In this document: piece by piece, positions 46,547-58,735 of the stretch
Layout of the letters: each line of letters starts with the position of its first letter
Position numbering within the stretch: the first letter of the stretch is position 1
Assembly: GCA_965200245.1 (NCBI GenBank)
Contig: CBDATS010000004.1
Coordinates: 288,001-352,000, forward strand
Source of the DNA: a bacterium
GTDB lineage: Bacteria > UBA8248
Length of the DNA stretch: 64,000 nt
Direction of reading: 5' to 3'
Translations under genes and position numbers: made by a program
Notes under the pieces: model-generated
What the model was told of the DNA's origin: nothing
Seen by the model: the letters and a program-made list of their open reading frames with translations, nothing else
The model's database searches: none

Positions 46547-49500
46547 TCAGGCTCGCCTGAAGTCTCTGATTTGCCGTACGAGCGGAATAGTGCCGCAAAC
46601 TAAACCCGTTGCAAGCATAGCAACGCTGAAGAAAATAACAAACAGAATGAATGTGACGAAGCAGACAAACAAGAGGAATCGTTCGTATGTATAGAGTCTT
46701 TCCAAAAGCCAGCCCTGGGTTCCCGCCGAGAAAGCGATGAATCCCAGAAGCGTAATGGATGCGGAAAGTACAACGCGCAACGGACTCGCGAAAGTAAGCA
46801 GCGCCGGGTCGAACATAAACAAAAAAGGAACGATAAAGCCCACGATAGCGAAGCGCAGGGACATCATGGATGTCTTGAAATAAGGGGCTCCCGCCAGCTT
46901 GGCACCCACGAGCGAAGCTATTGCCACGGGCGGCGTAATGGCGGAGAGAATCGCAAAATAGAAGATGAACATATGGGCTGCTACCCGGTCACCCTTGGAG
47001 GCCACGAACTCCTTGACCCATTCCGCACCATAGATATGTGTGAGTTCCGGCCCAACGAGCTTGATAAGCACGGGCCCACCCAGAATAGCAAGCAACACAT
47101 AGGCAGCCGTAGTCGGCATTCCCATGCCCAAAATCGCACAGCAAACCGCAGTGAGCAGAAGCGCAACGAAAAAACCATCGAGACCAATATAATATGCGCA
47201 GCCGCCACCCGCAGCGACGCCGAACAGACATATATCCTGGGCAAGGGCCTCGATCATGAAGGCGAACTTGTTGCCCACGCCCGTGATGGTCAGAACCTGC
47301 ACAACGACCTCGATGGTGGCCAGGGTTACGGCGAACTCGGCCCCCTGCCTGCCACCTACCCGCAAGGCATCACGGATACTGAAAATCCATGTGGATGCGC
47401 CTTGCGCGGCCTGTACGTCTGGACCCGTCTCGCCCGTATTTTTCGCTCGCTGCAAGTAGGTAAACGGATTGCACGACACGGCCAACACCTGCTTCACGCT
47501 TGGCACAGGTTCATCAGCCTCGGGTTGTTGCGAACCGAACGAAAATATTACCCTTTGGACAATGAAGGCCAACCCAAAAAAGATAAGGCCGTCATAGATA
47601 AATCCGAATGGAACGAACCATTCGCCGAAGTCCGCTATGGCGGGGACAAGCGTATAAATCCCTTTTTGCGCATAATAGGCTCCCACCCAAATGATGGCGA
47701 AATACCAGGGTATCGTCGTGGAGGGTTGCACACCATTTCCCCGGAAAATGGACAGTGCACAAAGCAGAATCAGTACAATTGCGAGCCCGGCAACACCTGG
47801 AGTCCAGCCCAAAACACCCCAAAAACCCACAAAGGTAAGTGGATAAATTGCAAGCCAATTCCGCTCGATCTCACGCCAGAATTCAGCCACCCAGGAGAGC
47901 AGGCGAGCGGAAACACTCACCAGAACGAAACCTGTAACGATCATGGACAGGGCGGCCGTAATTGCTGCACTCCAGGTCGGCTTCCCATATATCCCCAATG
48001 GCAACCCGAAACCCAACTCAAAAACCGAGAGAAATGCAAATACGAAGAAGACGAATACCCAAAAAGTGACCGGCACAAAAACGAATACATCATCCGCGAT
48101 GGTCTTATCACCCCGCCTCAGCGTACCCAGAAATTCCGTCACATTCCGGTAAAACCAAATGCCCACCATGATGAATACCGACATGACACCCGCAAACACG
48201 GGCGTTCTGCCCTCAAAGAGGAAATAGACCAAAAACGCCAGAGGCACGAGATAGAACCACCCGTTCTTGAGTTCCTCTTTCCAACTCGGAATCTCGGAAG
48301 CGGGCAATGGCTGTATATTCAGCGCCCCGGCTGCAAAGTGGATGTTGATCCCCACGATGGTGAAATACAAGACCGCAGGTATGGTGGCATATCCGATGAT
48401 ATGGAAATATGGCACCTCGATGAGTTCGCTCATGATAAAGGCGCCAGCCCCCATGACAGGCGGCATAATCTGTCCACCGCTGCTAGCCGCCGCCTCTGCC
48501 GCTCCGGCAATGTGCGGGCTGAGCCCGATACGCTTCATCAAGGGAATTGTGAACGTACCGGTGGTAACGACGTTCCCGGATGCGCTCCCAGACACCGTAC
48601 CCATGAGCGCGCTCGAACCAACTGCAGCGAGACCAGCACCCGCGCGCATCTTGCCGAACAGGCCTAAAGCGAAATTCACAAAAAAACGGCCTGCACCCGA
48701 TTCGTGTAAAAATGCTCCCAGAATAAGAAACATGATGATAAACGTGGCCGAGATAACAACCAGAAAGCCCAATACGCCACCGATAAAATCCGTTGACAGT
48801 TTGGCCTGAAGCTCAATCCATGTGTGACCACCATGACCAAAAGGAGGAGCGAAAAGATTGCCCCAGATGCCATAAGCGAAGGCAATCACCGCCAAAGTCG
48901 GAAGTGGAGGACCGAAACAACGTCTCGTCAACTCAAGGGCGACAACGAGCATGACGAAACCGACACGCGCATCTCCAATTGTCGGGGCGCCCGGTCGATC
49001 GACCATCTCCTCGTGGTAGTAGAATAAGTACAGACAAGCCGTTGCTACGAAAAAAAGCATGCCTGCGTTCAAGCCAATCGTGAAACCAGCCGGAAAAGGA
49101 TGCGCGGGATATTCTTCGAATACTTCCTTGATGCGTCTTTTGGCCCAGAAAAGAGGAAATGCGAAGACAACTACCGGCCAGAGGTAGAAAGCGCTTCTCA
49201 CCTCATCACTTTGCCCGGCCCACAACCCTACTCGCCACCCAATCAGAATGAGCGCTACGAAAAACACCCCCAGAAAAACACCCGCTTTTTTCACCCCCTC
49301 GGCGGGCCTGAAAAAGATCGCGAACAAGGTCCACATCACGGGAATTGCGGAGCACGTGATCAACAACCACCAGAATGTGGGCTCATGCGTGCTTTCAGGT
49401 AAGGAATCCCAATACCAGTACAGTATGGGCGCAGGAACGAACCCCAAAACCCACAGCAAAAGCGCGAGCCATGATTTTTCAACGACCATCATGGCTATCC

Positions 49501-49861
49501 ATATGACGAACGGGAGCGCATATACCCACCAAACACTCCAATCAGACCAGCCTTCTCCCATTTCATAAACAAAGTAGTAGAAAATGACGGCGGGAAACAA
49601 AGACAAGACATACAAGACCGGGAGAAGTTTCAGTTTTCGGATCCTGTCGCCATATATCCGCGGCATCGCGCCGGCACCGCCGATGAGAAGAATGCTGTAG
49701 GCCAACAACATGTGCATGTTGGGGTGCATCTCGCCTGGCAAAGGCCGCAGGTAGACCGCGGAGATATGATAGAGCCCCGAAAGCACGCATAGCCAGGAAG
49801 TGATGAAAACCAGAGCTCTTACGAGAGGAGCTGACTGGGTCGGATCAGATTCGGCGTTCAT
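46547..49861 (-). CDS. TAXI-type TRAP fused permease (DctQM-like), unusually long (1104 aa)
   Basis: ELTRR..G, SGS..GNV.TTGTFTIPLMK, AASSGGQIMPPVMGAGAF, LGMGMPT, AAHMFIFY..ITPPV. Confidence 0.9.
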   Translation of the reverse strand: MNAESDPTQSAPLVRALVFITSWLCVLSGLYHISAVYLRPLPGEMHPNMHMLLAYSILLIGGAGAMPRIYGDRIRKLKLLPVLYVLSLFPAVIFYYFVYEMGEGWSDWSVWWVYALPFVIWIAMMVVEKSWLALLLWVLGFVPAPILYWYWDSLPESTHEPTFWWLLITCSAIPVMWTLFAIFFRPAEGVKKAGVFLGVFFVALILIGWRVGLWAGQSDEVRSAFYLWPVVVFAFPLFWAKRRIKEVFEEYPAHPFPAGFTIGLNAGMLFFVATACLYLFYYHEEMVDRPGAPTIGDARVGFVMLVVALELTRRCFGPPLPTLAVIAFAYGIWGNLFAPPFGHGGHTWIELQAKLSTDFIGGVLGFLVVISATFIIMFLILGAFLHESGAGRFFVNFALGLFGKMRAGAGLAAVGSSALMGTVSGSASGNVVTTGTFTIPLMKRIGLSPHIAGAAEAAASSGGQIMPPVMGAGAFIMSELIEVPYFHIIGYATIPAVLYFTIVGINIHFAAGALNIQPLPASEIPSWKEELKNGWFYLVPLAFLVYFLFEGRTPVFAGVMSVFIMVGIWFYRNVTEFLGTLRRGDKTIADDVFVFVPVTFWVFVFFVFAFLSVFELGFGLPLGIYGKPTWSAAITAALSMIVTGFVLVSVSARLLSWVAEFWREIERNWLAIYPLTFVGFWGVLGWTPGVAGLAIVLILLCALSIFRGNGVQPSTTIPWYFAIIWVGAYYAQKGIYTLVPAIADFGEWFVPFGFIYDGLIFFGLAFIVQRVIFSFGSQQPEADEPVPSVKQVLAVSCNPFTYLQRAKNTGETGPDVQAAQGASTWIFSIRDALRVGGRQGAEFAVTLATIEVVVQVLTITGVGNKFAFMIEALAQDICLFGVAAGGGCAYYIGLDGFFVALLLTAVCCAILGMGMPTTAAYVLLAILGGPVLIKLVGPELTHIYGAEWVKEFVASKGDRVAAHMFIFYFAILSAITPPVAIASLVGAKLAGAPYFKTSMMSLRFAIVGFIVPFLFMFDPALLTFASPLRVVLSASITLLGFIAFSAGTQGWLLERLYTYERFLLFVCFVTFILFVIFFSVAMLATGLVCGTIPLVRQIRDFRRA

Positions 49862-50160
49862 GTTTCCCCTTCTTTCTCCACCGAGGTGGATTCATCATGG
49901 CAATTCGCAAACTACCTGTTGATTCAATCCACGTCATTCTAGCGGATAGGCTTGCTGTTTTTCCAGCGACTCACAAGATTCGCCCAAATGCCTTCCGAAC
50001 TTTGTACCTGACAACTTCACCTGGCACTTGACCAAACCGCATGGTTTTGTTTAAGTATTCGCACCTCGATAAACCTTCAGGATATGAGATTTTATTCATG
50101 AGTCTCGGATTTACAACTCGAAACGATCAAGTAATTTTCACTACCCAAAAGGAGATGCGA

Positions 50161-51132
50161 ATGAGGGAATCCACACTTCGGTTGATCACGTTGGCGGCAG
50201 GTCTTGCCTTGGTTATCGGCACGGCTCCGACGGCACACGCAGCCAAAATACTCATGGGAACGTCCCAGCCCGGTGGCGCCACTTTCGAGATTGGCACCGC
50301 AATGGGCAAAGTGATCACGGACAATTCGGGCGGAAAGATTCAAGTGGAAACATCCGTAACCGGCGGTTCCACGGCAAATGTCCGGACACTTCAGAAGAAG
50401 GACAAGAACCAGGCCCTGCGCATAGGCATGGCCACGGCGCCGGCTGTCTCGTGGGGCCAAACAGGCAGGAAACCCTTCAAGAAACCTCAGGATGTACTGG
50501 CACTCGGAGCCCTTTATCCATTGACAACCGTCTACACCACATTCAAGACCACCGGAATCAAGAAATGGGCCGATCTCAAGGGCAAAAGATTCGTTGTCGG
50601 CGGTCGCGGGGGCTCGATTTACATCGTCACGCAGCTTGCCCTCAAACACAGCGGCGTAAAAGCGAAAAAAGAATTCTTCAACAACAACCAGAACTCAGCC
50701 GCCATCAAAGACCAAAGGGTGGACGCCGGATTCTTCTTCCTGAACGCGAACGTTCCCGCACCCGTGTATATGGACCTCGCTCGCACGCTCTCCGGCAAAC
50801 TTCACTTCTTCGGCCCAGATGAAGCCACTATCAAAAAGCTTGCCGAGAACGAAGCGGGCATCGTGCGCGATGTCGTGTCTGCCGGCTCCATCCCTGGTTA
50901 CGACAAGGATGTCGTAAGCTGGGGACAGATGTGGACTCTGATGACCAACAGCAAAATGAGCAATGCCAACGCATACGGGCTCGTCAAGGCTCTGTACGAC
51001 AACCACAAACAAATCACCAAATATCATCCGACCGGAAAATACGTCACGAAAAAGACAGGCCTTCGTGGCATTAAGAAACTCAAGATGCACCCGGGAGCGG
51101 CCCGCTACTGGAAAGAGTCGGGCATGAACTAA
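50161..51132 (+). CDS. TAXI-family TRAP substrate-binding protein
   Basis: Signal peptide, GTSQPGG, TGGSTAN, DLKGKR, HPGAARYWKE. Confidence 0.9.
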   Translation: MRESTLRLITLAAGLALVIGTAPTAHAAKILMGTSQPGGATFEIGTAMGKVITDNSGGKIQVETSVTGGSTANVRTLQKKDKNQALRIGMATAPAVSWGQTGRKPFKKPQDVLALGALYPLTTVYTTFKTTGIKKWADLKGKRFVVGGRGGSIYIVTQLALKHSGVKAKKEFFNNNQNSAAIKDQRVDAGFFFLNANVPAPVYMDLARTLSGKLHFFGPDEATIKKLAENEAGIVRDVVSAGSIPGYDKDVVSWGQMWTLMTNSKMSNANAYGLVKALYDNHKQITKYHPTGKYVTKKTGLRGIKKLKMHPGAARYWKESGMN

Positions 51133-51147
51133 GCATCATCGACAATG

Positions 51148-51176
51148 AAAAACTCCTGCTTCGGCGGGGGTTTTTT
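51148..51176 (+). terminator. Rho-independent terminator
   Basis: AAAAACTCCTGC-TTCG-GCGGGGGTTTTTT. Confidence 0.75.
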
Positions 51177-51267
51177 ATTGTCTCGTGATACTCGCCAAGG
51201 ACTATGGAAATGGTATGATGGCCGAACATTACCCAGAACCAGACCTTTCCATTCCCGGGAGAAGAAA

Positions 51268-51876
51268 ATGGACGCATCCGGTTTTGAAACCGTTCGTCTG
51301 GTCAAACCCGACGAGGCCGAAGATGAAGTTCTGCAGATATACGATGAAATATGTCGATTAAAGGACCCGCGCTGGCTGGGACCGTTATTTGGGTTTTTCG
51401 CACACGTGCCGGGTCTGTTGAGGGGATTTTGGGAACTGCAAAAACGCCTCGAAGTGCTGGATGGCCATATTTCACGTGAGTTGACCAATCGCATCGCCAT
51501 GGTTTGCGCGGTTGCCTCAGACTGCCCCCGCTGCGTGAATTTCCACAAAACAGATCTAATCCACCGCCTGGAACTCGATGAATATGAAGTCGAAAAACTT
51601 CATGACTTCGAGAACGCCGATTTGCCCGAAGCGGAAAAGGCGGTTTTCCGTGTTGCCAGAAAACTCACACTCAACGAACAGATGAGCGACAGTGAGTTTC
51701 AGGCGTTGCGCGAGCACGGCTTTGATGAACCCGCTATCGTGGAGATTGTCTCCGTTGCCTTGCTGGAGAGCGGCTTCGCTCGTCACGCAAGCGTACTCGC
51801 GCGATTTGAAGACGGAATGGACTGGCCTGCGCAACATACCCCATACGCCGAATATCGAAGCGCCATCGACCGCTAA
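51268..51876 (+). CDS. AhpD/carboxymuconolactone decarboxylase-family protein
   Basis: RE...IA..A...CPRCVNFH; LREHGF....IVEIV. Confidence 0.75.
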   Translation: MDASGFETVRLVKPDEAEDEVLQIYDEICRLKDPRWLGPLFGFFAHVPGLLRGFWELQKRLEVLDGHISRELTNRIAMVCAVASDCPRCVNFHKTDLIHRLELDEYEVEKLHDFENADLPEAEKAVFRVARKLTLNEQMSDSEFQALREHGFDEPAIVEIVSVALLESGFARHASVLARFEDGMDWPAQHTPYAEYRSAIDR

Positions 51877-52215: not shown

Positions 52216-52416
52216 GCCTGGGAATCATAACACAATACCGGGAAATGATAATGCCACCTATTTCCCGATGGTTTTCGTATTGAAAAACAATTTCAACTCT
52301 TATATGGTTACCTGAAATTCAAAGACTGGAATTTTACGGATATGGTGGATGATTCAGGGCGTTCATTCGCCGATTTATCTTCAAGCTACACAACCATATT
52401 TTGGAAATGACCTCTC

Positions 52417-54375
52417 GTGCCAGAACCCAAACACCTGCTCAGAATGTCGAAAATCGACAAATCCTTCCCCGGCGTTCATGCCCTCAAGGAAGTAGATTTC
52501 GATCTCGCCGAAGGCGAAATCCACATCCTCCTGGGTGAAAACGGGGCCGGAAAATCCACACTCATCAAAATCTTGGCAGGAATGTATCAGACAGATTCCG
52601 GTCAAATCGAGATTCGCGAAGCACCCACCGTTATCCCCGATGCCAGAACAGGTCGAGACCTGGGAATAAGCGTGATCTATCAGGAACTGAACCTGGTACC
52701 CGATCTGAGCGTGGCAAAAAACATCTTTCTCGGGCGTGAACCTGTCTTGCCCGGCATCATGAAGCGTGTAGATTGGGCCAAAGTCGAGCAAGAATCCCGT
52801 GCGATCATGGAACGTTTGGGCGTAAAAATCGACGTCACCGCGCCGGTCCGATCACTAAGCGTCGCGGATCAGCAAATGGTGGAGATCGCTCGCGCTCTTG
52901 CGTTCGACTGCAATATCCTGGTCATGGATGAACCCACGTCCTCCTTGAGTGGGCATGAAATCGAGGAACTCTTCAAGGCGGTCAATCGGTTGCGTGAACA
53001 TGGTGTCGGCATAATCTATATCTCCCACCGACTTGAAGAAGTTCACAAAATTGGAAACCGCGTCACCGTCCTGCGCGACGGGCAATATATGGGCACATGG
53101 GAAGTCAAAGAGGTGGAACTCGATTTCCTGATTACGCAGATGGTGGGACGCACACTTGACGATAAATTCCCGTGGACGCCCCGCGAGCGGGGTGAAGTGG
53201 CACTGCGCGTGCGTGGTCTCACCCGAAACGGCATATTCGAAGATATCAACTTTGACCTTCACTATGGTGAAATCGTCGGTCTTTCGGGTCTCGTAGGCGC
53301 GGGAAGAACCGAGGTGGCACGCGCCGTTATGGGCGCGGACACTGTCGATAGCGGCACTGTTGAAATGACCAGAGCGACAAAAGAAAAACAGGAGATACAG
53401 AAACTCCCCCACTACCCGCTCTGGTTGGCGCTCGTGGACGTTTTCGTTTTCATGCTGGCCTTGCCCCTGTTCACCGTTATATTCCAGGTAATTTACGATC
53501 CTTTCACGCTCAACATGAATTCACCACCACCCCTGTTCAGTGGAAACTGGTTTTACGAATGGATTCTTGGCGGACCTTTGTACAACATACCGAATGGTCC
53601 CACACCCTATATTGTCGCCACCGGTCTGGCCGTCGTCCGGCAGGCCGGAATCTGGTTTCTCGAGCGGCAATACAGCTGGCGCACTCTGGCTATCGACTTT
53701 GCGAGTTGGTACGCCCTGGCGGTATGCACGATGGTCATTACAAGTTTGTTCACCCAGAATTTCGTTCTTGAATGGATCATGATCTGGGGCGGCGTCGCTA
53801 TGCTCATTATCCGGTTCTTGACGATCCTCACTCATGAACGCAAGTGGAATCCGACACTGGCCATACGACGAGGGCTCGGACTGTTGCCCGAGGACAGGAA
53901 GACCCAGGGTCTCACCCAGGTCCTTTCCGTTGCATTCAACACTACCAGCGCGAATCTCCGCCGCCTCATCAAGCGGTGGCTGCTGAATCTGAGCGTCGAA
54001 AAAAACCTCGTGGATGAACACATCCATCAACTGAAGATCATGACACCTGATCAGGAGACACAAGTCCGCTTCCTGTCAGGCGGTAACCAGCAGAAGGTCG
54101 TTCTGGCCAAATGGCTCTTCAGACGTGCCAACGTGCTCATCTTTGATGAACCGACCCGTGGAATCGACGTAGGCGCCAAATTCGAAGTCCACTCACAGAT
54201 GTTGCAATTGGCCAAAGATGGTGCCGCGGTAATGATGATTTCCAGTGAACTCCCTGAAATTCTTGGAATGAGCGATCGAATTCTGGTGATGCGTGAAGGT
54301 CGGCTCACCGCAGATATCGACAGAAGCGAAGCAACGCAGGAAGGAATCTTGCGCTACGCCATGACGGCGGAATGA
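52417..54375 (+). CDS. RbsA/MglA-type double-NBD sugar ABC ATPase with an internal ~160-aa membrane insertion
   Basis: GENGAGKST, YQELNL, MDEPT, ISHRL, GLVGAGRTE, PEDRK, LSGGNQQK, FDEPTRGIDVG, ISSELPE. Confidence 0.92.
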   Translation: MPEPKHLLRMSKIDKSFPGVHALKEVDFDLAEGEIHILLGENGAGKSTLIKILAGMYQTDSGQIEIREAPTVIPDARTGRDLGISVIYQELNLVPDLSVAKNIFLGREPVLPGIMKRVDWAKVEQESRAIMERLGVKIDVTAPVRSLSVADQQMVEIARALAFDCNILVMDEPTSSLSGHEIEELFKAVNRLREHGVGIIYISHRLEEVHKIGNRVTVLRDGQYMGTWEVKEVELDFLITQMVGRTLDDKFPWTPRERGEVALRVRGLTRNGIFEDINFDLHYGEIVGLSGLVGAGRTEVARAVMGADTVDSGTVEMTRATKEKQEIQKLPHYPLWLALVDVFVFMLALPLFTVIFQVIYDPFTLNMNSPPPLFSGNWFYEWILGGPLYNIPNGPTPYIVATGLAVVRQAGIWFLERQYSWRTLAIDFASWYALAVCTMVITSLFTQNFVLEWIMIWGGVAMLIIRFLTILTHERKWNPTLAIRRGLGLLPEDRKTQGLTQVLSVAFNTTSANLRRLIKRWLLNLSVEKNLVDEHIHQLKIMTPDQETQVRFLSGGNQQKVVLAKWLFRRANVLIFDEPTRGIDVGAKFEVHSQMLQLAKDGAAVMMISSELPEILGMSDRILVMREGRLTADIDRSEATQEGILRYAMTAE

Positions 54376-54397
54376 GCTGCTTTTGGAGGTAGATTCA

Positions 54398-55411
54398 ATG
54401 AGCGCAGCAGCCTCTATGGAAAACGAGAAGTTCATCTTCGGATATCCGGTCAAGGATATTCCATGGGAGCGGATACTCCTGATATCCGCTTTCCTGGTCT
54501 TGATGATCTTCTACACCTTTGCGACCGAGAACTTCCTGACCCTCGAAAACTTCGTGAATGTCGTGCGGCGCGACGCATGGCTCTTTTTTTTGGCCTATGC
54601 GCAGACACTGGTCATCGTTTCGGCAGGATTCGACCTTTCACAAGGCTCCATCATGAGCGTGGTAAGCGTGATGGCCTGGAGCGCGATGTTGCATTTCGGG
54701 TTTTTCGTCGGCCTCATCGCAGGCCTCGGTATCGGTCTGCTGTGTGGCACCATCAATGGTTTTTTCGTCGGCGTAGTCAGGGTGCAACCTTTCATCGCGA
54801 CATTGGGGATGCTCTTTATCGGCAGCGGCACGGCCCAGCTTTGGACCGGCGGCCTTCAAATGGGAGGCGCGCGCGAAGGCGCAACACTTCCGAAACACGT
54901 GGAAGAGGCGTATGTCTTTCTCGCGAAAGGAAATCTCGGTCCCATCCCCTTCACATTCATCTGGATAATCATCGCGCTGGCTACGATGTGGTATCTGCTC
55001 AAATACACCCGATTTGGCACGTACGTGTACGCCCTGGGCGGAAACGAGCAAACGGCGATTTCCGCGGGCATCAACTATGCCGGCATGAAAATCGCCATTT
55101 TCGGCATAGGTGGCCTTTTGTGCGGTTTCGCAGGGCTTCTTCTTTCAGCGAACGTCAGCGCAGCGGGAGAACCAAGGCTGGGCGGCGGCGATCAATTGCT
55201 CCAGTCGATCGGAGCAACCATAATCGGCGGCACGCATATTTTCGGCGGGCGAGGCGGCGTACTGGGTACGACGCTGGGTGTCTTCCTGATCATTTTCCTG
55301 GTGAATGGACTAAACATCATGGGAATCGACACCTACCGGCAACAAATCATCGTCGGTTTGGTGATTCTCGCCTCCATCTGGGTCAGCACCCTGCGTGAAC
55401 ACAAAAACTAG
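54398..55411 (+). CDS. RbsC-type ABC permease
   Basis: GFDLSQGS, PFIATLG, YALGGNE, IIGGT..FGGRG. Confidence 0.9.
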   Translation: MSAAASMENEKFIFGYPVKDIPWERILLISAFLVLMIFYTFATENFLTLENFVNVVRRDAWLFFLAYAQTLVIVSAGFDLSQGSIMSVVSVMAWSAMLHFGFFVGLIAGLGIGLLCGTINGFFVGVVRVQPFIATLGMLFIGSGTAQLWTGGLQMGGAREGATLPKHVEEAYVFLAKGNLGPIPFTFIWIIIALATMWYLLKYTRFGTYVYALGGNEQTAISAGINYAGMKIAIFGIGGLLCGFAGLLLSANVSAAGEPRLGGGDQLLQSIGATIIGGTHIFGGRGGVLGTTLGVFLIIFLVNGLNIMGIDTYRQQIIVGLVILASIWVSTLREHKN

Positions 55412-55426
55412 GGGAGATTCAATATA

Positions 55427-56422
55427 ATGGCGAAAGCAGCGGAGGCTCCGGCCAGACCTCCTGCCTCCATCTTGGCCAGTTTCGATTACGACAAATATGG
55501 TTTGCTCGTCGTATTCATCCTCATGATGATCATATTTTACATTCTTCAGTTGATGGGCTACGTGAACAACTTCATTGAAGCCCATAACCTGACCAACCAA
55601 CTCAGAAACGCTTCCTTGCTGTTCTTTATCGTGGCCGGCCAAAGCATGGTACTCCTGGTATCGGGTATCGATTTGAGCCAGGGTTCTCTGCTAAGCCTAT
55701 CGAGCGTCGTGATGGCGCAGGGCATTCTGGACTTCGGTCTCGCCGTGGGCGTGCTGATGGGTATCGGGATGGCAACGATGTTCGGTTTCATCAACGGCTA
55801 CCTCGTAGGCCGCGTGAAGATACAGCCTTTCATCGTCACCTTGAGCATGCTCTTCATCTGCGCCGGTATTGCCCTTGTGTTCACGGGCGGACGCACGATC
55901 CATCAGTTCACGGGCGAGCAAAAAGACATCCTTCAGGCCATCGGCCTCACGGATTTCTTTCATATCCCCGGCACGCTGTTCATTGCGATTGCCTTTTTCA
56001 TCATTCTCTACCTGCTGACGAAACGTACGGTGCTGGGAAGGGCGATCTACTTGACCGGCGGGAACGAAGAGGCCGCCCGCCTCTCCGGCATCGACACCGG
56101 CAAGGTAAAACTCATTTGTTACTTGATCAGCGGCATCTGCGTGGGCATCACCTCCTTCCTCTATTTGGCAAGGCTTCCGGCCACGAACGGCCTCGCAGGA
56201 TTCCAGCTCGAATTCCAGTCCCTGGCGGCCACCGTCGTGGGGGGCACGACCTTCCACGGTGGTGAGGGCGGCGTGGTGCAGGCCGCTATCGGGACGTTGT
56301 TCCTGACATTTTTGCTCAATGGTCTTATTCTCCTGGGCGTAGGTACATTCGCTCGGGAGGTGGTGGTTGGCGTTTTGCTTATTACGGCCGTGGTATTGAG
56401 TTCCCGCAAGCGGCGCGAATAG
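55427..56422 (+). CDS. RbsC-type ABC permease
   Basis: GIDLSQGS, PFIVTL, GGNEEAARLSG, VVGGT..GGEG. Confidence 0.9.
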   Translation: MAKAAEAPARPPASILASFDYDKYGLLVVFILMMIIFYILQLMGYVNNFIEAHNLTNQLRNASLLFFIVAGQSMVLLVSGIDLSQGSLLSLSSVVMAQGILDFGLAVGVLMGIGMATMFGFINGYLVGRVKIQPFIVTLSMLFICAGIALVFTGGRTIHQFTGEQKDILQAIGLTDFFHIPGTLFIAIAFFIILYLLTKRTVLGRAIYLTGGNEEAARLSGIDTGKVKLICYLISGICVGITSFLYLARLPATNGLAGFQLEFQSLAATVVGGTTFHGGEGGVVQAAIGTLFLTFLLNGLILLGVGTFAREVVVGVLLITAVVLSSRKRRE

Positions 56423-56511
56423 GAAAAATGTTCATTTGGCAGTCATTCTATCCCTTTCGCGGAGGAGACGGATTCTTCCGTGAAACCCATTCTGCGACGA
56501 GGAGACCCAAG

Positions 56512-57570
56512 ATGAAAAAACTGTTGCGCACTTTCATGATCCTCGCTTCCGTCGTCACGTTCATGTTCGTGTCGATGGCGGCGGCCCCGGACGCCGACGC
56601 CCGGGTGAAGGCAAAGAAGAAATACAAGATCGCCGTCGTCGTGCCGAACGGTGTCGACCCTTATTTCTTCTCGAAATGGTATGGAAGCGTCCAGGCTGCC
56701 AAGGAAGCCGGCGTGACCGTGACCATGTTCGACGCGGGTGGATACGAGTTCCTGCCCAAGCAGGTGGCCCACGTGGAAGACATCATCGCTGCGAAATACG
56801 ACGGAATGATCATCTGCCCAATCAGCACCAAGGGCATGGTCAACGCCGTCCACAAGGCGATGGACAAGGGCATCAAGATCGTTGTGGATAACATCGACCT
56901 CGACAGTAACCGCGTCAAAAACCGCGTCATGAAAAACAGCTATGAATTGGGTCTTCTCATTGGCGCTACCCTGGCGCACGGCATCAATTATCAAGGCAAG
57001 GTCATGATGTTGCCCGGACCAAGCGGCATCGAGATGGTAACCTCCATGGCCAAAGGCTTTGAGGAGTACATGAGCCACTACCCGAAAATCAAGATTGTGG
57101 CCAAGGAATTCACCAAGTCCAACGTTCAGCATGCATTCCAGACGGCTGAGGACCTGCTCAAGAAACACCCGGATGTAAAAGGCATATATCCCTGGGCGAC
57201 GCTCATCGCGAGAGGTACGGTGGACGCCGTAAAAGCCGCTGGTTACAAGCCCGGCCAGATCAAGATCGTGACGCACAATCTCGTCGTCGGCATCGAGAAA
57301 GACATTCGGGACGGCTGGGTTCATGCGGCTGTCCTGGCTGAGCAGATCGCCATGGCGAGAGAAGCCGTTTTCAACGTGATCGACCTGATCGAAGGACGCC
57401 AGCCTCCCGGCGCGCCACATCGCGGCGGCACGCTCAGTTACATCCAGAATTACATGGCTTACCAGCACAACCTCGACATTCTGGATCGAAGCGGCATCGA
57501 GGCTCCGAAAGAGTGGATGATCAAGCGCCAAAAGCGTGCGGCAAACATTGTGGGCGGAAAACGCCGTTAA
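56512..57570 (+). CDS. Sugar-type periplasmic binding protein (RbsB-like)
   Basis: Signal peptide, DPYF, Q...EDII...DGMII, GIKIV, LLKKHPDVKGI. Confidence 0.85.
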   Translation: MKKLLRTFMILASVVTFMFVSMAAAPDADARVKAKKKYKIAVVVPNGVDPYFFSKWYGSVQAAKEAGVTVTMFDAGGYEFLPKQVAHVEDIIAAKYDGMIICPISTKGMVNAVHKAMDKGIKIVVDNIDLDSNRVKNRVMKNSYELGLLIGATLAHGINYQGKVMMLPGPSGIEMVTSMAKGFEEYMSHYPKIKIVAKEFTKSNVQHAFQTAEDLLKKHPDVKGIYPWATLIARGTVDAVKAAGYKPGQIKIVTHNLVVGIEKDIRDGWVHAAVLAEQIAMAREAVFNVIDLIEGRQPPGAPHRGGTLSYIQNYMAYQHNLDILDRSGIEAPKEWMIKRQKRAANIVGGKRR

Positions 57571-57641: not shown

Positions 57642-58735
57642 CTACAACCCGTTCACGTATAAACTGAGTCCCATCCGCCCGGTCGACCCGCCGGGTTTGG
57701 GGTCGGAAATCCCGTCCGTCTGTACCTGTCCCATACCATCTACGGCCCGTACTGTCGCCGGATAAAATCCGTCTTCATCAAAACGCATGGGAAAGGCCCA
57801 AATAGTCCATGAGAGAGGCCCCAAGGGCTTTTTGAGAAAAGCCGGCGACCAGGACCGCAAACGCTCGCCTTGTCCGTAGGTAACTTCCACCTTGCGAATT
57901 CCCCGCGCTCCCGCAAATGCCGAACCCACAAGCCAGACTTTCGCTGTCCGTACATTGACGCGTCTTCTGGGAGCTTCGAAACGACTAAGCGTCTCGACAA
58001 TCGCCTCATCCGACCAACCGCGTCTTTGCCAATAGCCGCCATGCCCCCCGGTCGATATTTCGATGGATTCGATCCATTTTACGTTCTTCAGACCATACGT
58101 TCCCGGCACGAGGAGCCTCAAGGGGCGCCATGATCCCGTGGAAGATGATTCCCGTTCATTCTGGTGCACAGAAGCGTTCTCGGATACAGGGCCTGCTCCA
58201 TGGATATGGAGTCATGATACCCGTCCGCCGCACGAAAAATGACCCTGGCGGATACGGACCGGCGAACGCTCTCCGCTATGCCCGCCTGTTCGATAAGGTT
58301 TTTGAGCGGTATCCCCTGCCATAACGCGTTTCCTATCTGTCCCCCGCCCACGGGATTTCCGATACAGGTCATGGTCGCCCAGGTTTTCTCTTGTCTGAAC
58401 ACGCCCAATTCCGAAAAGGTAGCGGAAAAAGGCTGTTTTATCTCACCCTTGATGTTCAACCGCCATTTCCTGCGGGAGAGTCCTGGCGATGAATGGCCGA
58501 TGCTTTGCACGTAGAACGCATCGTTCGCCGTGACTTCGGGAACGACGCGCGCGGCGAACGCGAGAATATCCTCACCGGCTCTGGGCATCTCGACGGGGCG
58601 GCTGTTCAACCAGTCGAACAGGCGGCCCGTCATAGAGGCCTGCGCGTCGGGCGGAATCCCGAGCACGGCCAGGGGAGCAACTCTCCCCGCCACCCGCAAC
58701 ACATGGCGTCTGGATACGTTCATGATGATCCTCAC
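57642..58735 (-). pseudogene. Tat-exported sulfite-oxidase-family molybdoenzyme, frameshifted at 58122-58125
   Basis: SRR Tat motif, TMTCIGN (Mo-ligating Cys), GNALWQG, ADGY, HGAP | LRLLVPG..G.KNVKW, GYWQRRGW. Confidence 0.8.

Follow-up and report, generated by a model that had tools for sequence, protein, structure and literature searches.

In textbook ATP-binding cassette (ABC) importers, the ATPase is wholly cytoplasmic and contacts the membrane part only via coupling helices, and it is the Q-loop region of the ATPase that meets the coupling helix of the membrane subunit. ATPases of the CUT2 family (RbsA, AraG, XylG and MglA; TC 3.A.1.2) consist of tandem cassettes in a chain of about 500 amino acids (aa), with a canonical first nucleotide-binding domain (NBD1), a second domain (NBD2) whose Walker A motif has no lysine, and the motifs LSGGNQQK and ISSE. 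Their operons also encode two RbsC-like BPD_transp_2 permeases and a Peripla_BP_4 binding protein. In the RbsA-type fused NBDs of RbsA and NupO, one ATP site is degenerate, and the Lys-less Walker A of NBD2 contributes to it (PMC11466899). Here we analyze a CUT2-type ATPase gene and its operon in a stretch of 64,000 nucleotides, called the window below, from a bacterium of the lineage UBA8248 (GenBank assembly GCA_965200245.1, contig CBDATS010000004.1, positions 288,001 to 352,000 of the forward strand). The encoded protein and its operon share all the features listed above, but the protein contains 652 aa, and where its relatives have a hairpin in NBD2 it carries about 160 residues with four helices of membrane-grade hydrophobicity. 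The architecture is genuine, conserved and maintained by selection, and it represents a variation on a known type of transporter.

The ATPase gene is open throughout and begins with a GTG codon. An alternative start is the ATG at 52444, corresponding to residue 10, where several aligned relatives begin. The gene and its cassette parts are as follows.

52417..54375, + strand: gene of the 652-aa CUT2-type double-NBD ABC ATPase with a nested insert (open frame; matches to ABC_tran and to the AraG, RbsA and XylG models).
52417..53166, + strand: NBD1, residues 1-250 (sequence; best Pfam stretch 23-175; invariant alignment columns).
53179..53367, + strand: N-terminal part of NBD2, residues 255-317 (sequence; alignments with insert-less relatives).
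53851..54372, + strand: C-terminal part of NBD2, residues 479-652 (sequence; alignments; a search with this region).

NBD1 has a canonical Walker A (GENGAGKST), Walker B (LVMDEPT) and H-loop (ISHR) and a degenerate signature, LSVADQQ. The N-terminal part of NBD2 contains the first strands, the Walker A motif GLVGAGRT (Arg instead of Lys) with its helix, and a last strand, GTVEM, which ends at residue 317. The C-terminal part resumes with PTLAIRRGLGLLPEDRK at residue 479 and holds EDRK at the Q-loop position, the signature LSGGNQQK (553-560), the Walker B motif IFDEPTRG (DEPTRG at 577-582) and ISSE (608-611). The motif pattern of the family, namely a canonical NBD1, a Lys-less NBD2 Walker A, LSGGNQQK, DEPTRG and Ser in place of the H-loop His, is invariant in all three alignments made, which cover the insert family and insert-less relatives. 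A Walker A without lysine in NBD2 is common to the insert-less relatives too. The Pfam model ABC_tran matches the protein in 3 stretches (E 3.5e-48), and the NCBIfam models AraG, RbsA, XylG, GguA and MglA match in 2 stretches each, with a break at about residue 320. The motifs, the order of the domains and the operon place the protein in the CUT2 ATPase family. Two usual properties of the family are absent: a length of about 500 aa without hydrophobic segments, as in its soluble members, and a score above any equivalog cut-off (AraG, the best, 550.7 bits vs 689; RbsA 511 vs 745; XylG 507 vs 699). Because the ATPase scores under every NCBIfam equivalog cut-off, no substrate can be assigned to the transporter.

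The extent of the insert was defined by comparison with insert-less sequences: two paralogues encoded elsewhere in its own genome, which are 42-44% identical to it, two proteins of other members of the class (46-47%), and the nearest relatives (55-60%), which were drawn from a collection of 5.8 billion clusters. All of them show the pattern ...G.VE[IM], then 8-9 residues, then P...I..G.G.LPEDRK. About 160 residues of the window's protein stand where these sequences have a beta-hairpin of 8-9 residues (9 in the nearest relatives). The hairpin site lies after the Walker-A helix of NBD2, and its end is 14 residues before EDRK at the Q-loop position. The nearest insert-less relatives (P0039, P0044, P0046, P0060, P0066 and others) resemble the protein over the NBD parts, where the 55-60% identity applies, and in the motifs flanking the site (...G.VEI / RP.SPR..IRRGLGLLPEDRK), but they have only 498-518 aa and a plain hairpin, and fall outside the insert clade. 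A first-pass annotation of this DNA had described an otherwise canonical CUT2 ATPase with its frame and downstream motifs intact and an insertion inside NBD2 at 53368-53847. The open frame and the presence of every string it quoted bear this out, its coordinates match T318-W477 exactly, and the alignments confirm the site. The insert and its segments are as follows.

53368..53847, + strand: insert, T318-W477, 160 aa (alignments; found only in its own family; ratio of nonsynonymous to synonymous substitution rates, dN/dS, of 0.11).
53368..53415, + strand: N-linker, residues 318-333, charged and predicted cytoplasmic, with a predicted short helix at 319-328 and an invariant PHYP (helix prediction; charges; invariants).
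53416..53496, + strand: helix 1, residues 334-360, with D341 invariant and an outer half, 345-360, that is nearly all invariant (hydropathy; predicted helix 335-360; alignment).
53497..53607, + strand: loop 1, residues 361-397, predicted periplasmic, 37 residues of constant length, rich in Pro, Trp and Tyr with scarcely any Lys or Arg, and with a short helix at 376-385 (charges; dN/dS; helix prediction; alignment).
53608..53661, + strand: helix 2, residues 398-415, marginally hydrophobic, with invariant R408-Q409 (hydropathy; helix prediction).
53662..53685, + strand: loop 2, residues 416-423, predicted cytoplasmic (charges).
53686..53751, + strand: helix 3, residues 424-445, with D427 and W431 invariant (hydropathy; helix prediction; alignment).
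53752..53772, + strand: loop 3, residues 446-452, predicted periplasmic, with TQNF..E invariant (alignment; charges).
53773..53832, + strand: helix 4, residues 453-472, with W453, G459 and R466 invariant (hydropathy; helix prediction; alignment).
53833..53850, + strand: C-linker, residues 473-478 (HERKWN), six residues, after which NBD2 resumes (sequence; alignment; charges).

The insert is widespread in a narrow group of bacteria. A search with residues 315-480 found 20 proteins with the insert among 166 candidates, 60-87% identical over the insert; 17 of them are 643-670 aa long and 3 are fragments. The family alignment consists of the 17 full-length relatives and the query (18 sequences), with the fragments left out. 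The insert is free of insertions and deletions (indels) throughout these full-length relatives. Of 51 genomes searched in the phylum, 27 match a profile of the insert (E <= 6e-79), as a single copy in each and inside an open frame of 628-710 aa, and a recurrence of this extent is beyond chance; the 27 include single-contig genomes, and three more matches among the 51, at E 0.3-0.4, are noise. The insert-bearing genomes are the window's own, 21 of the 22 others of its genus, 4 of 5 of a second genus and the single genome of a third. The one genome of the window's genus without the insert is 79% complete. At significant E the insert is absent from six other genera of the family (0 of 13 genomes) and from three other families (0 of 9). 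The relatives carry the phylum label Nitrospinota. Scans for divergent members gave only 3 loci in metagenomes (83% identity) and 4 loci in genome contigs.

Both junctions of the insert are covered by contigs and reads. Over 52400-54400, the sequence agrees in every letter with a 33.6-kb contig of another study, which may be the source of this DNA. Of two RNA-library contigs, one crosses the 5' junction (53287-53460) and the other lies within the insert (53469-53827), while raw DNA reads cover 53807-53940, across the 3' junction. In the matching contigs and reads, no joints, indels or variant letters were found over the ATPase gene. The insert junctions show no direct or inverted repeats, and the guanine-cytosine content of the insert is unremarkable. 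The insert is not an assembly artefact, and the check for a chimeric assembly that had been suggested earlier came out clean, with both junctions covered and the architecture recurring in 27 genomes. An explanation that takes the insert for a chimera, a mobile element that landed in frame, an intein or a copied stretch of permease can draw on its abrupt appearance without intermediates and on nothing else. It is confronted with 27 genomes, some of them single-contig, and a contig from a different study that share the architecture, with purifying selection in frame (see below), with junctions that have no flanking repeats and RNA-library contigs that have no joints, and with a composition that is not intein-like and a sequence that matches no Pfam family. 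We regard its probability as negligible. Two specific candidates were rejected. A duplicated permease fragment obtained an hhalign probability of 0.2% against the alignments of both permease 1 and permease 2 of the operon. An intein or mobile element is contradicted by the absence of junction repeats and joints, one copy per genome, occurrence only in this gene and no relatives elsewhere.

The insert evolves under purifying selection in the ATPase frame. Among the 18 sequences, 35% of the insert columns are invariant, compared with 55% in the NBD parts, and no insert segment varies in length. The dN/dS ratio (Nei-Gojobori; 16 genes, 120 pairs, 110-117 usable per partition; dS about 0.9) is 0.11 for the insert and 0.05 for the NBDs. 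Within the insert it is 0.16 for the four helices and 0.07 for loop 1, which is by this measure the most constrained part. Conservation is strictest along the outer half of helix 1 and in the two outer loops, loop 1 and TQNF..E.

The insertion has a single origin. In a search with the C-terminal 174 residues, every one of the 21 best matches, which share at least 75% identity, is a member of the insert family; 19 have 643-670 aa and 2 are fragments. The other 99 of the best 120 are 465-536 aa long and at most 67% identical. A tree was built from 82 proteins: 20 with the insert, 58 insert-less matches with a length of 480 aa or more, and 4 that are paralogues or relatives from the class. Three insert-less matches shorter than 480 aa were dropped, and a 50% fill rule excluded the insert columns, leaving 507 columns. 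The insert-bearing proteins form one clade with a Shimodaira-Hasegawa-like approximate likelihood-ratio test (SH-aLRT) support of 100 and a stem of 0.49 changes per column, counted over NBD columns only. All 20 fall in this clade, so the insertion took place once. The clade is nested among insert-less proteins in a group with SH-aLRT 97, whose records carry the labels Tectomicrobia, NC10 or Chloroflexota. The proteins without the insert that stand closest to the ATPase are thus neither its paralogues in the same genome nor its relatives in the same class, and this, with the long stem of 0.49, hints that the operon was acquired horizontally or that change was fast once the insert was in place.

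The insert resembles no described domain in the collections searched. When searched alone among 1.84 billion representative proteins, it found only its own 50%-identity cluster, and no free-standing or intermediate form was seen in these representatives or in the 51 phylum genomes. The window's insert matches no Pfam family at E <= 10, and the ESM Atlas gave no usable match. A Pfam search at the same threshold with 15 insert sequences gave four families, each matched by one of the sequences only (among them PDR_CDR at 0.0023 and RseC_MucC at 0.026), which we rejected as chance hydrophobic matches.

Hydropathy, charge distribution and helix prediction agree on a membrane character of the insert. 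The hydrophobic segments of the ATPase are 333-356, 398-414, 426-445 and 451-471, and the family-mean Kyte-Doolittle (KD) values of helices 1-4 are 1.79, 1.31, 1.39 and 1.74. The protein was scanned in 19-residue windows with a simple sum of Hessa values. The best windows of helices 1-4 score 0.43, 6.93, 1.36 and -0.19 on this scale. For comparison, the transmembrane (TM) segments of the operon permeases range from -2.9 to +7.9, and the binding protein's signal peptide reaches -0.18. Membrane-grade windows are confined to the insert, as the NBD parts have none below 8 (at least 9.55). Three insert segments of at least 19 residues reach KD 2.0-2.5, matching the best TM helices of the permeases. 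AlphaFold2 (AF2) predicted long helices at 335-360, 396-415, 421-445 and 451-477 both in a run with the whole protein, which was based on the alignment of 18 sequences and used for secondary structure only, and in a run with the insert alone. The family-mean number of Lys and Arg residues is 3.7 in the N-linker, 0.4 in loop 1, 1.8 in loop 2, 0.1 in loop 3 and 1.8 in the C-linker. This alternation is what the positive-inside rule would predict for a chain with its N-terminus inside, four crossings and its C-terminus inside. The invariant charges D341, R408, D427 and R466 each lie 4-8 residues from the predicted cytoplasmic end of their helix, which suggests that they may pair in one layer of a compact bundle.

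On these predictions, the insert most likely forms a four-helix membrane bundle with both ends in the cytoplasm, and its membrane topology is well supported as a prediction. The first-pass annotation had proposed four helices that return the chain to the cytoplasm. Hydropathy, charges and predicted helices now speak for this count, with the qualification that helix 2 is marginal. Its placement of the Pro/Trp-rich loop 1 on the outer face likewise holds as a prediction, given a mean of 0.4 Lys and Arg residues there against 3.7, 1.8 and 1.8 in the segments predicted to be cytoplasmic.

The ATPase is followed by the other genes of a CUT2 importer, in this order.

54383..55411, + strand: permease 1, BPD_transp_2, RbsC-like, with a probable ATG start at 54398 (Pfam; synteny).
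55427..56422, + strand: permease 2, BPD_transp_2, RbsC-like (Pfam; synteny).
56428..57570, + strand: binding protein, Peripla_BP_4, with residues 35-53 resembling a signal peptide (Pfam; hydropathy).

The permeases have 337 and 331 residues. A permease 1 orthologue (at least 78% identity) occurs in the same 27 genomes as the insert and in no others of the 51. The ATPase and both permease genes are adjacent in 16 of 16 loci, and the gene of the binding protein comes next in 15; the exception is a contig that ends first.

We lean towards a model in which the ATPase is an integral membrane subunit of its CUT2 importer and the bundle is an accessory subunit contacting the permeases or the binding protein. 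In this model, the ATPase of a binding-protein-dependent importer of the ribose/arabinose type would have turned into an integral membrane protein in this lineage. A lineage-specific module would be nested in a beta-hairpin of NBD2, the domain that gives its Lys-less Walker A to the degenerate ATP site. D341, R408, D427 and R466 would form a polar layer in the inner leaflet, and the 37-residue aromatic and proline-rich loop and the short TQNF..E loop would lie on the periplasmic side. The chain returns from the module into NBD2 just 14 residues ahead of the EDRK/Q-loop element, which should put the bundle next to the permease heterodimer. There it could work as an accessory membrane subunit built into the ATPase, holding NBD2 to the membrane part. 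The concentration of conservation in the outer half of helix 1 and the two outer loops argues for specific contacts rather than mere anchoring; the constrained outer loop may touch the periplasmic face of the permeases or the docked binding protein. Such contacts could stabilize or tune coupling at the degenerate site. We infer the membrane insertion, the packing of the bundle, its place next to the permeases and any regulatory role.

Several observations weigh against this model or the topology beneath it. The whole-protein AF2 run has a mean predicted local distance difference test (pLDDT) score of 58.9, with the insert and part of NBD2 below 50, and the insert-only run reaches a mean pLDDT of 65 and a predicted TM-score (pTM) of 0.53. 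A Foldseek search of the insert model against the Protein Data Bank (PDB) returned no match at E <= 0.001. In a wider structural search, the top match is 8b5l_t, a 181-residue chain of the Sec61-TRAP translocon complex, which we take to be a four-TM translocon-associated subunit. This match is compatible with a four-helix membrane bundle, but its Z of 9.2 (rmsd, root-mean-square deviation, 3.1; 115 aligned; next match Z 6.3) is under the value of about 13 advised for helical bundles. Helix 2 is weakly hydrophobic and carries R408-Q409; its simple sum of 6.9 falls in the range of the weaker permease TM segments. The equal depth of the four charged residues would follow only from the proposed helix boundaries. 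A PDB sequence search returned no CUT2 ATPase structure that would show the orientation of the hairpin (the best match is a generic NBD, E 6.5e-26). Finally, the RNA-library contigs that cover the insert may contain DNA.

The weak hydrophobicity of helix 2 and the low AF2 confidence also leave some room for a domain that does not cross the membrane at all, that is, a hydrophobic helical domain on the cytoplasmic side that would dip into the inner leaflet or cap the degenerate site. Known insertions in NBDs are cytosolic, as in the following two systems. The NBD1 of CFTR, which we take to contribute the Walker A to a degenerate site as NBD2 does here, has an extra segment of its own. This regulatory insertion (404-435) lies in the ABC-specific antiparallel beta subdomain, as in our protein, but it consists of about 32 residues and is cytosolic, mobile, phosphorylated and located between the first two strands (PMC2217481). 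The insert described here has about 160 residues, is hydrophobic and rigidly conserved, and follows the Walker-A helix. The gate helix or loop of Wzt/TarH-type transporters is likewise inserted in an NBD and proposed to act at the membrane interface, but in these type V exporters it amounts to one short helix or loop in the cytosol (PMC13018209), not a membrane-spanning set in an importer. A cytoplasmic domain would also have to account for three segments of at least 19 residues as hydrophobic as the best permease TM helices, for charges that alternate exactly as the positive-inside rule expects for four crossings, and for a 37-residue loop kept nearly free of Lys and Arg, which a soluble domain would not maintain. 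We therefore consider a domain of this kind very unlikely. Among solved structures and in the literature open to our search, which leaves out most subscription journals, we came across no account of membrane helices nested in the NBD of an ABC protein, and the insert matches no described family. The earlier statement that no importer with this architecture had been described is thus in keeping with our results.

If the helices do span the membrane, they might be a plain tether that only anchors the ATPase and raises its local concentration near the permeases, with no specific contacts or regulation. The hydropathy and the positive-inside pattern are all that an anchor requires, and the catalytic motifs are all unchanged relative to the insert-less relatives. 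An anchor should allow drift, yet the insert has no indels in 18 sequences and 35% of its columns are invariant. Its outward loop 1, at a dN/dS of 0.07 compared with 0.16 for the helices, is more constrained than the part that would do the anchoring, and four invariant charges within helices are costly for a mere anchor. Moreover, no lineage that bears the operon has lost the insert (27 of 27 genomes). A plain tether is therefore unlikely in our judgement.

Other features raise the question of a second activity, in which the module would be a small membrane device, such as a sensor, a ligand site or a path for ions or protons, gated by NBD2 or gating it and largely independent of the permeases. 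Two Asp and two Arg residues are invariant in the helices, invariant Gln, Asn, Thr and Glu residues lie at their outer ends, and loop 1 is strongly constrained. The order of helix 1, a long outer loop with a short helix, and helices 2-4 resembles small redox or sensor membrane proteins with four helices. However, there is no significant sequence, family or fold match to such proteins. A VKOR-like chain tops the Foldseek list of the insert model, a model of modest confidence, but at E 0.37 and a TM-score of 0.25 this is not significant. Apart from H332, the insert has no invariant Cys or His pair; a search of two alignments for VKOR/DsbB-like cysteine pairs found no Cys among the invariant or nearly invariant insert columns. 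No free-standing homologue occurs in the representatives or phylum genomes searched. We believe a second activity to be quite unlikely.

A further variant of our model would make the nested bundle a signalling wire, whose periplasmic loop touches the ligand-loaded, TorT-like binding protein and signals into the degenerate NBD2 site. This route would run parallel to the classical coupling helices of the permeases. We mention it as a doubtful possibility. Of these readings, the accessory membrane subunit is the one that we prefer.

TorT is a periplasmic protein that senses trimethylamine N-oxide. It is the best NCBIfam match of the operon's binding protein (E 4e-30, 104.8 bits vs a cut-off of 200), and its score exceeds those of the allose, rhamnose and ribose binding-protein models; solved CUT2 sugar-binding proteins match the operon's protein only at E 7e-21. 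The ligand of the transporter may not be a common sugar, judging from these sequence comparisons. The 540-bp region upstream of the ATPase gene has no Rfam match and offers no riboswitch clue to the ligand, and promoter and terminator scans stayed at the level of shuffled sequence.

Directly upstream lies a TAXI-type tripartite ATP-independent periplasmic (TRAP) transport system, consisting of a fused permease (46547-49861, - strand; 1104 aa vs the 615 positions of the TRAP_fused model) and an NMT1_3 binding protein (50041-51132, + strand). In 15 of 16 loci, this pair and the ABC operon are syntenic. Between the two systems, a gene at 51145-51876 (+ strand) is weakly CMD/AhpD-like (Pfam E 8e-4, under the cut-off). 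A variable passenger, it is present in 13 of 16 loci, of which one is partial. Downstream of the operon, a gene for a SorA/SoxC-like sulfite dehydrogenase, a molybdenum enzyme (57642-58735, - strand), is split into two overlapping ORFs of 205 aa and 175 aa. The break is near 58118-58125, where the sequence is one base short relative to locus L009, just past the ...HGAP codons and beside a run of C. Both pieces share one frame in the 15 loci where both were found, and the split is either a true frameshift or an assembly error.

The region 53200-54000 is present in full in sponge-metagenome runs and in runs of a second study under a coded organism name, and two metatranscriptome runs hold 38-46% of the sampled words from it. 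These matches suggest a host-associated habitat and possible expression. The same genome contains three further insert-less CUT2-type double-NBD ATPases (contigs C4, C8 and C5; 36-46% identity over the first 317 residues). These give the organism several ABC systems of the sugar type, in contrast to the reports on Nitrospina gracilis. Published genome descriptions of Nitrospina and Nitrospinota, in the parts available, go no further than a putative sugar ABC transporter whose specificity is unknown (PMC3578206, PMC10839748, PMC8026999).

The ATPase described here differs from the cytoplasmic textbook arrangement in that a module predicted to consist of four membrane helices is threaded through a loop of a catalytic fold and is under strong selection. 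The NBD fold would thus tolerate co-translational membrane insertion in the middle of a domain. The host lineage adds to the interest, as the relatives are labelled Nitrospinota, a group known as the main marine nitrite oxidisers. For the CUT2 family, this importer may provide a natural system for asking what the degenerate ATP site is for in importers with fused NBDs.

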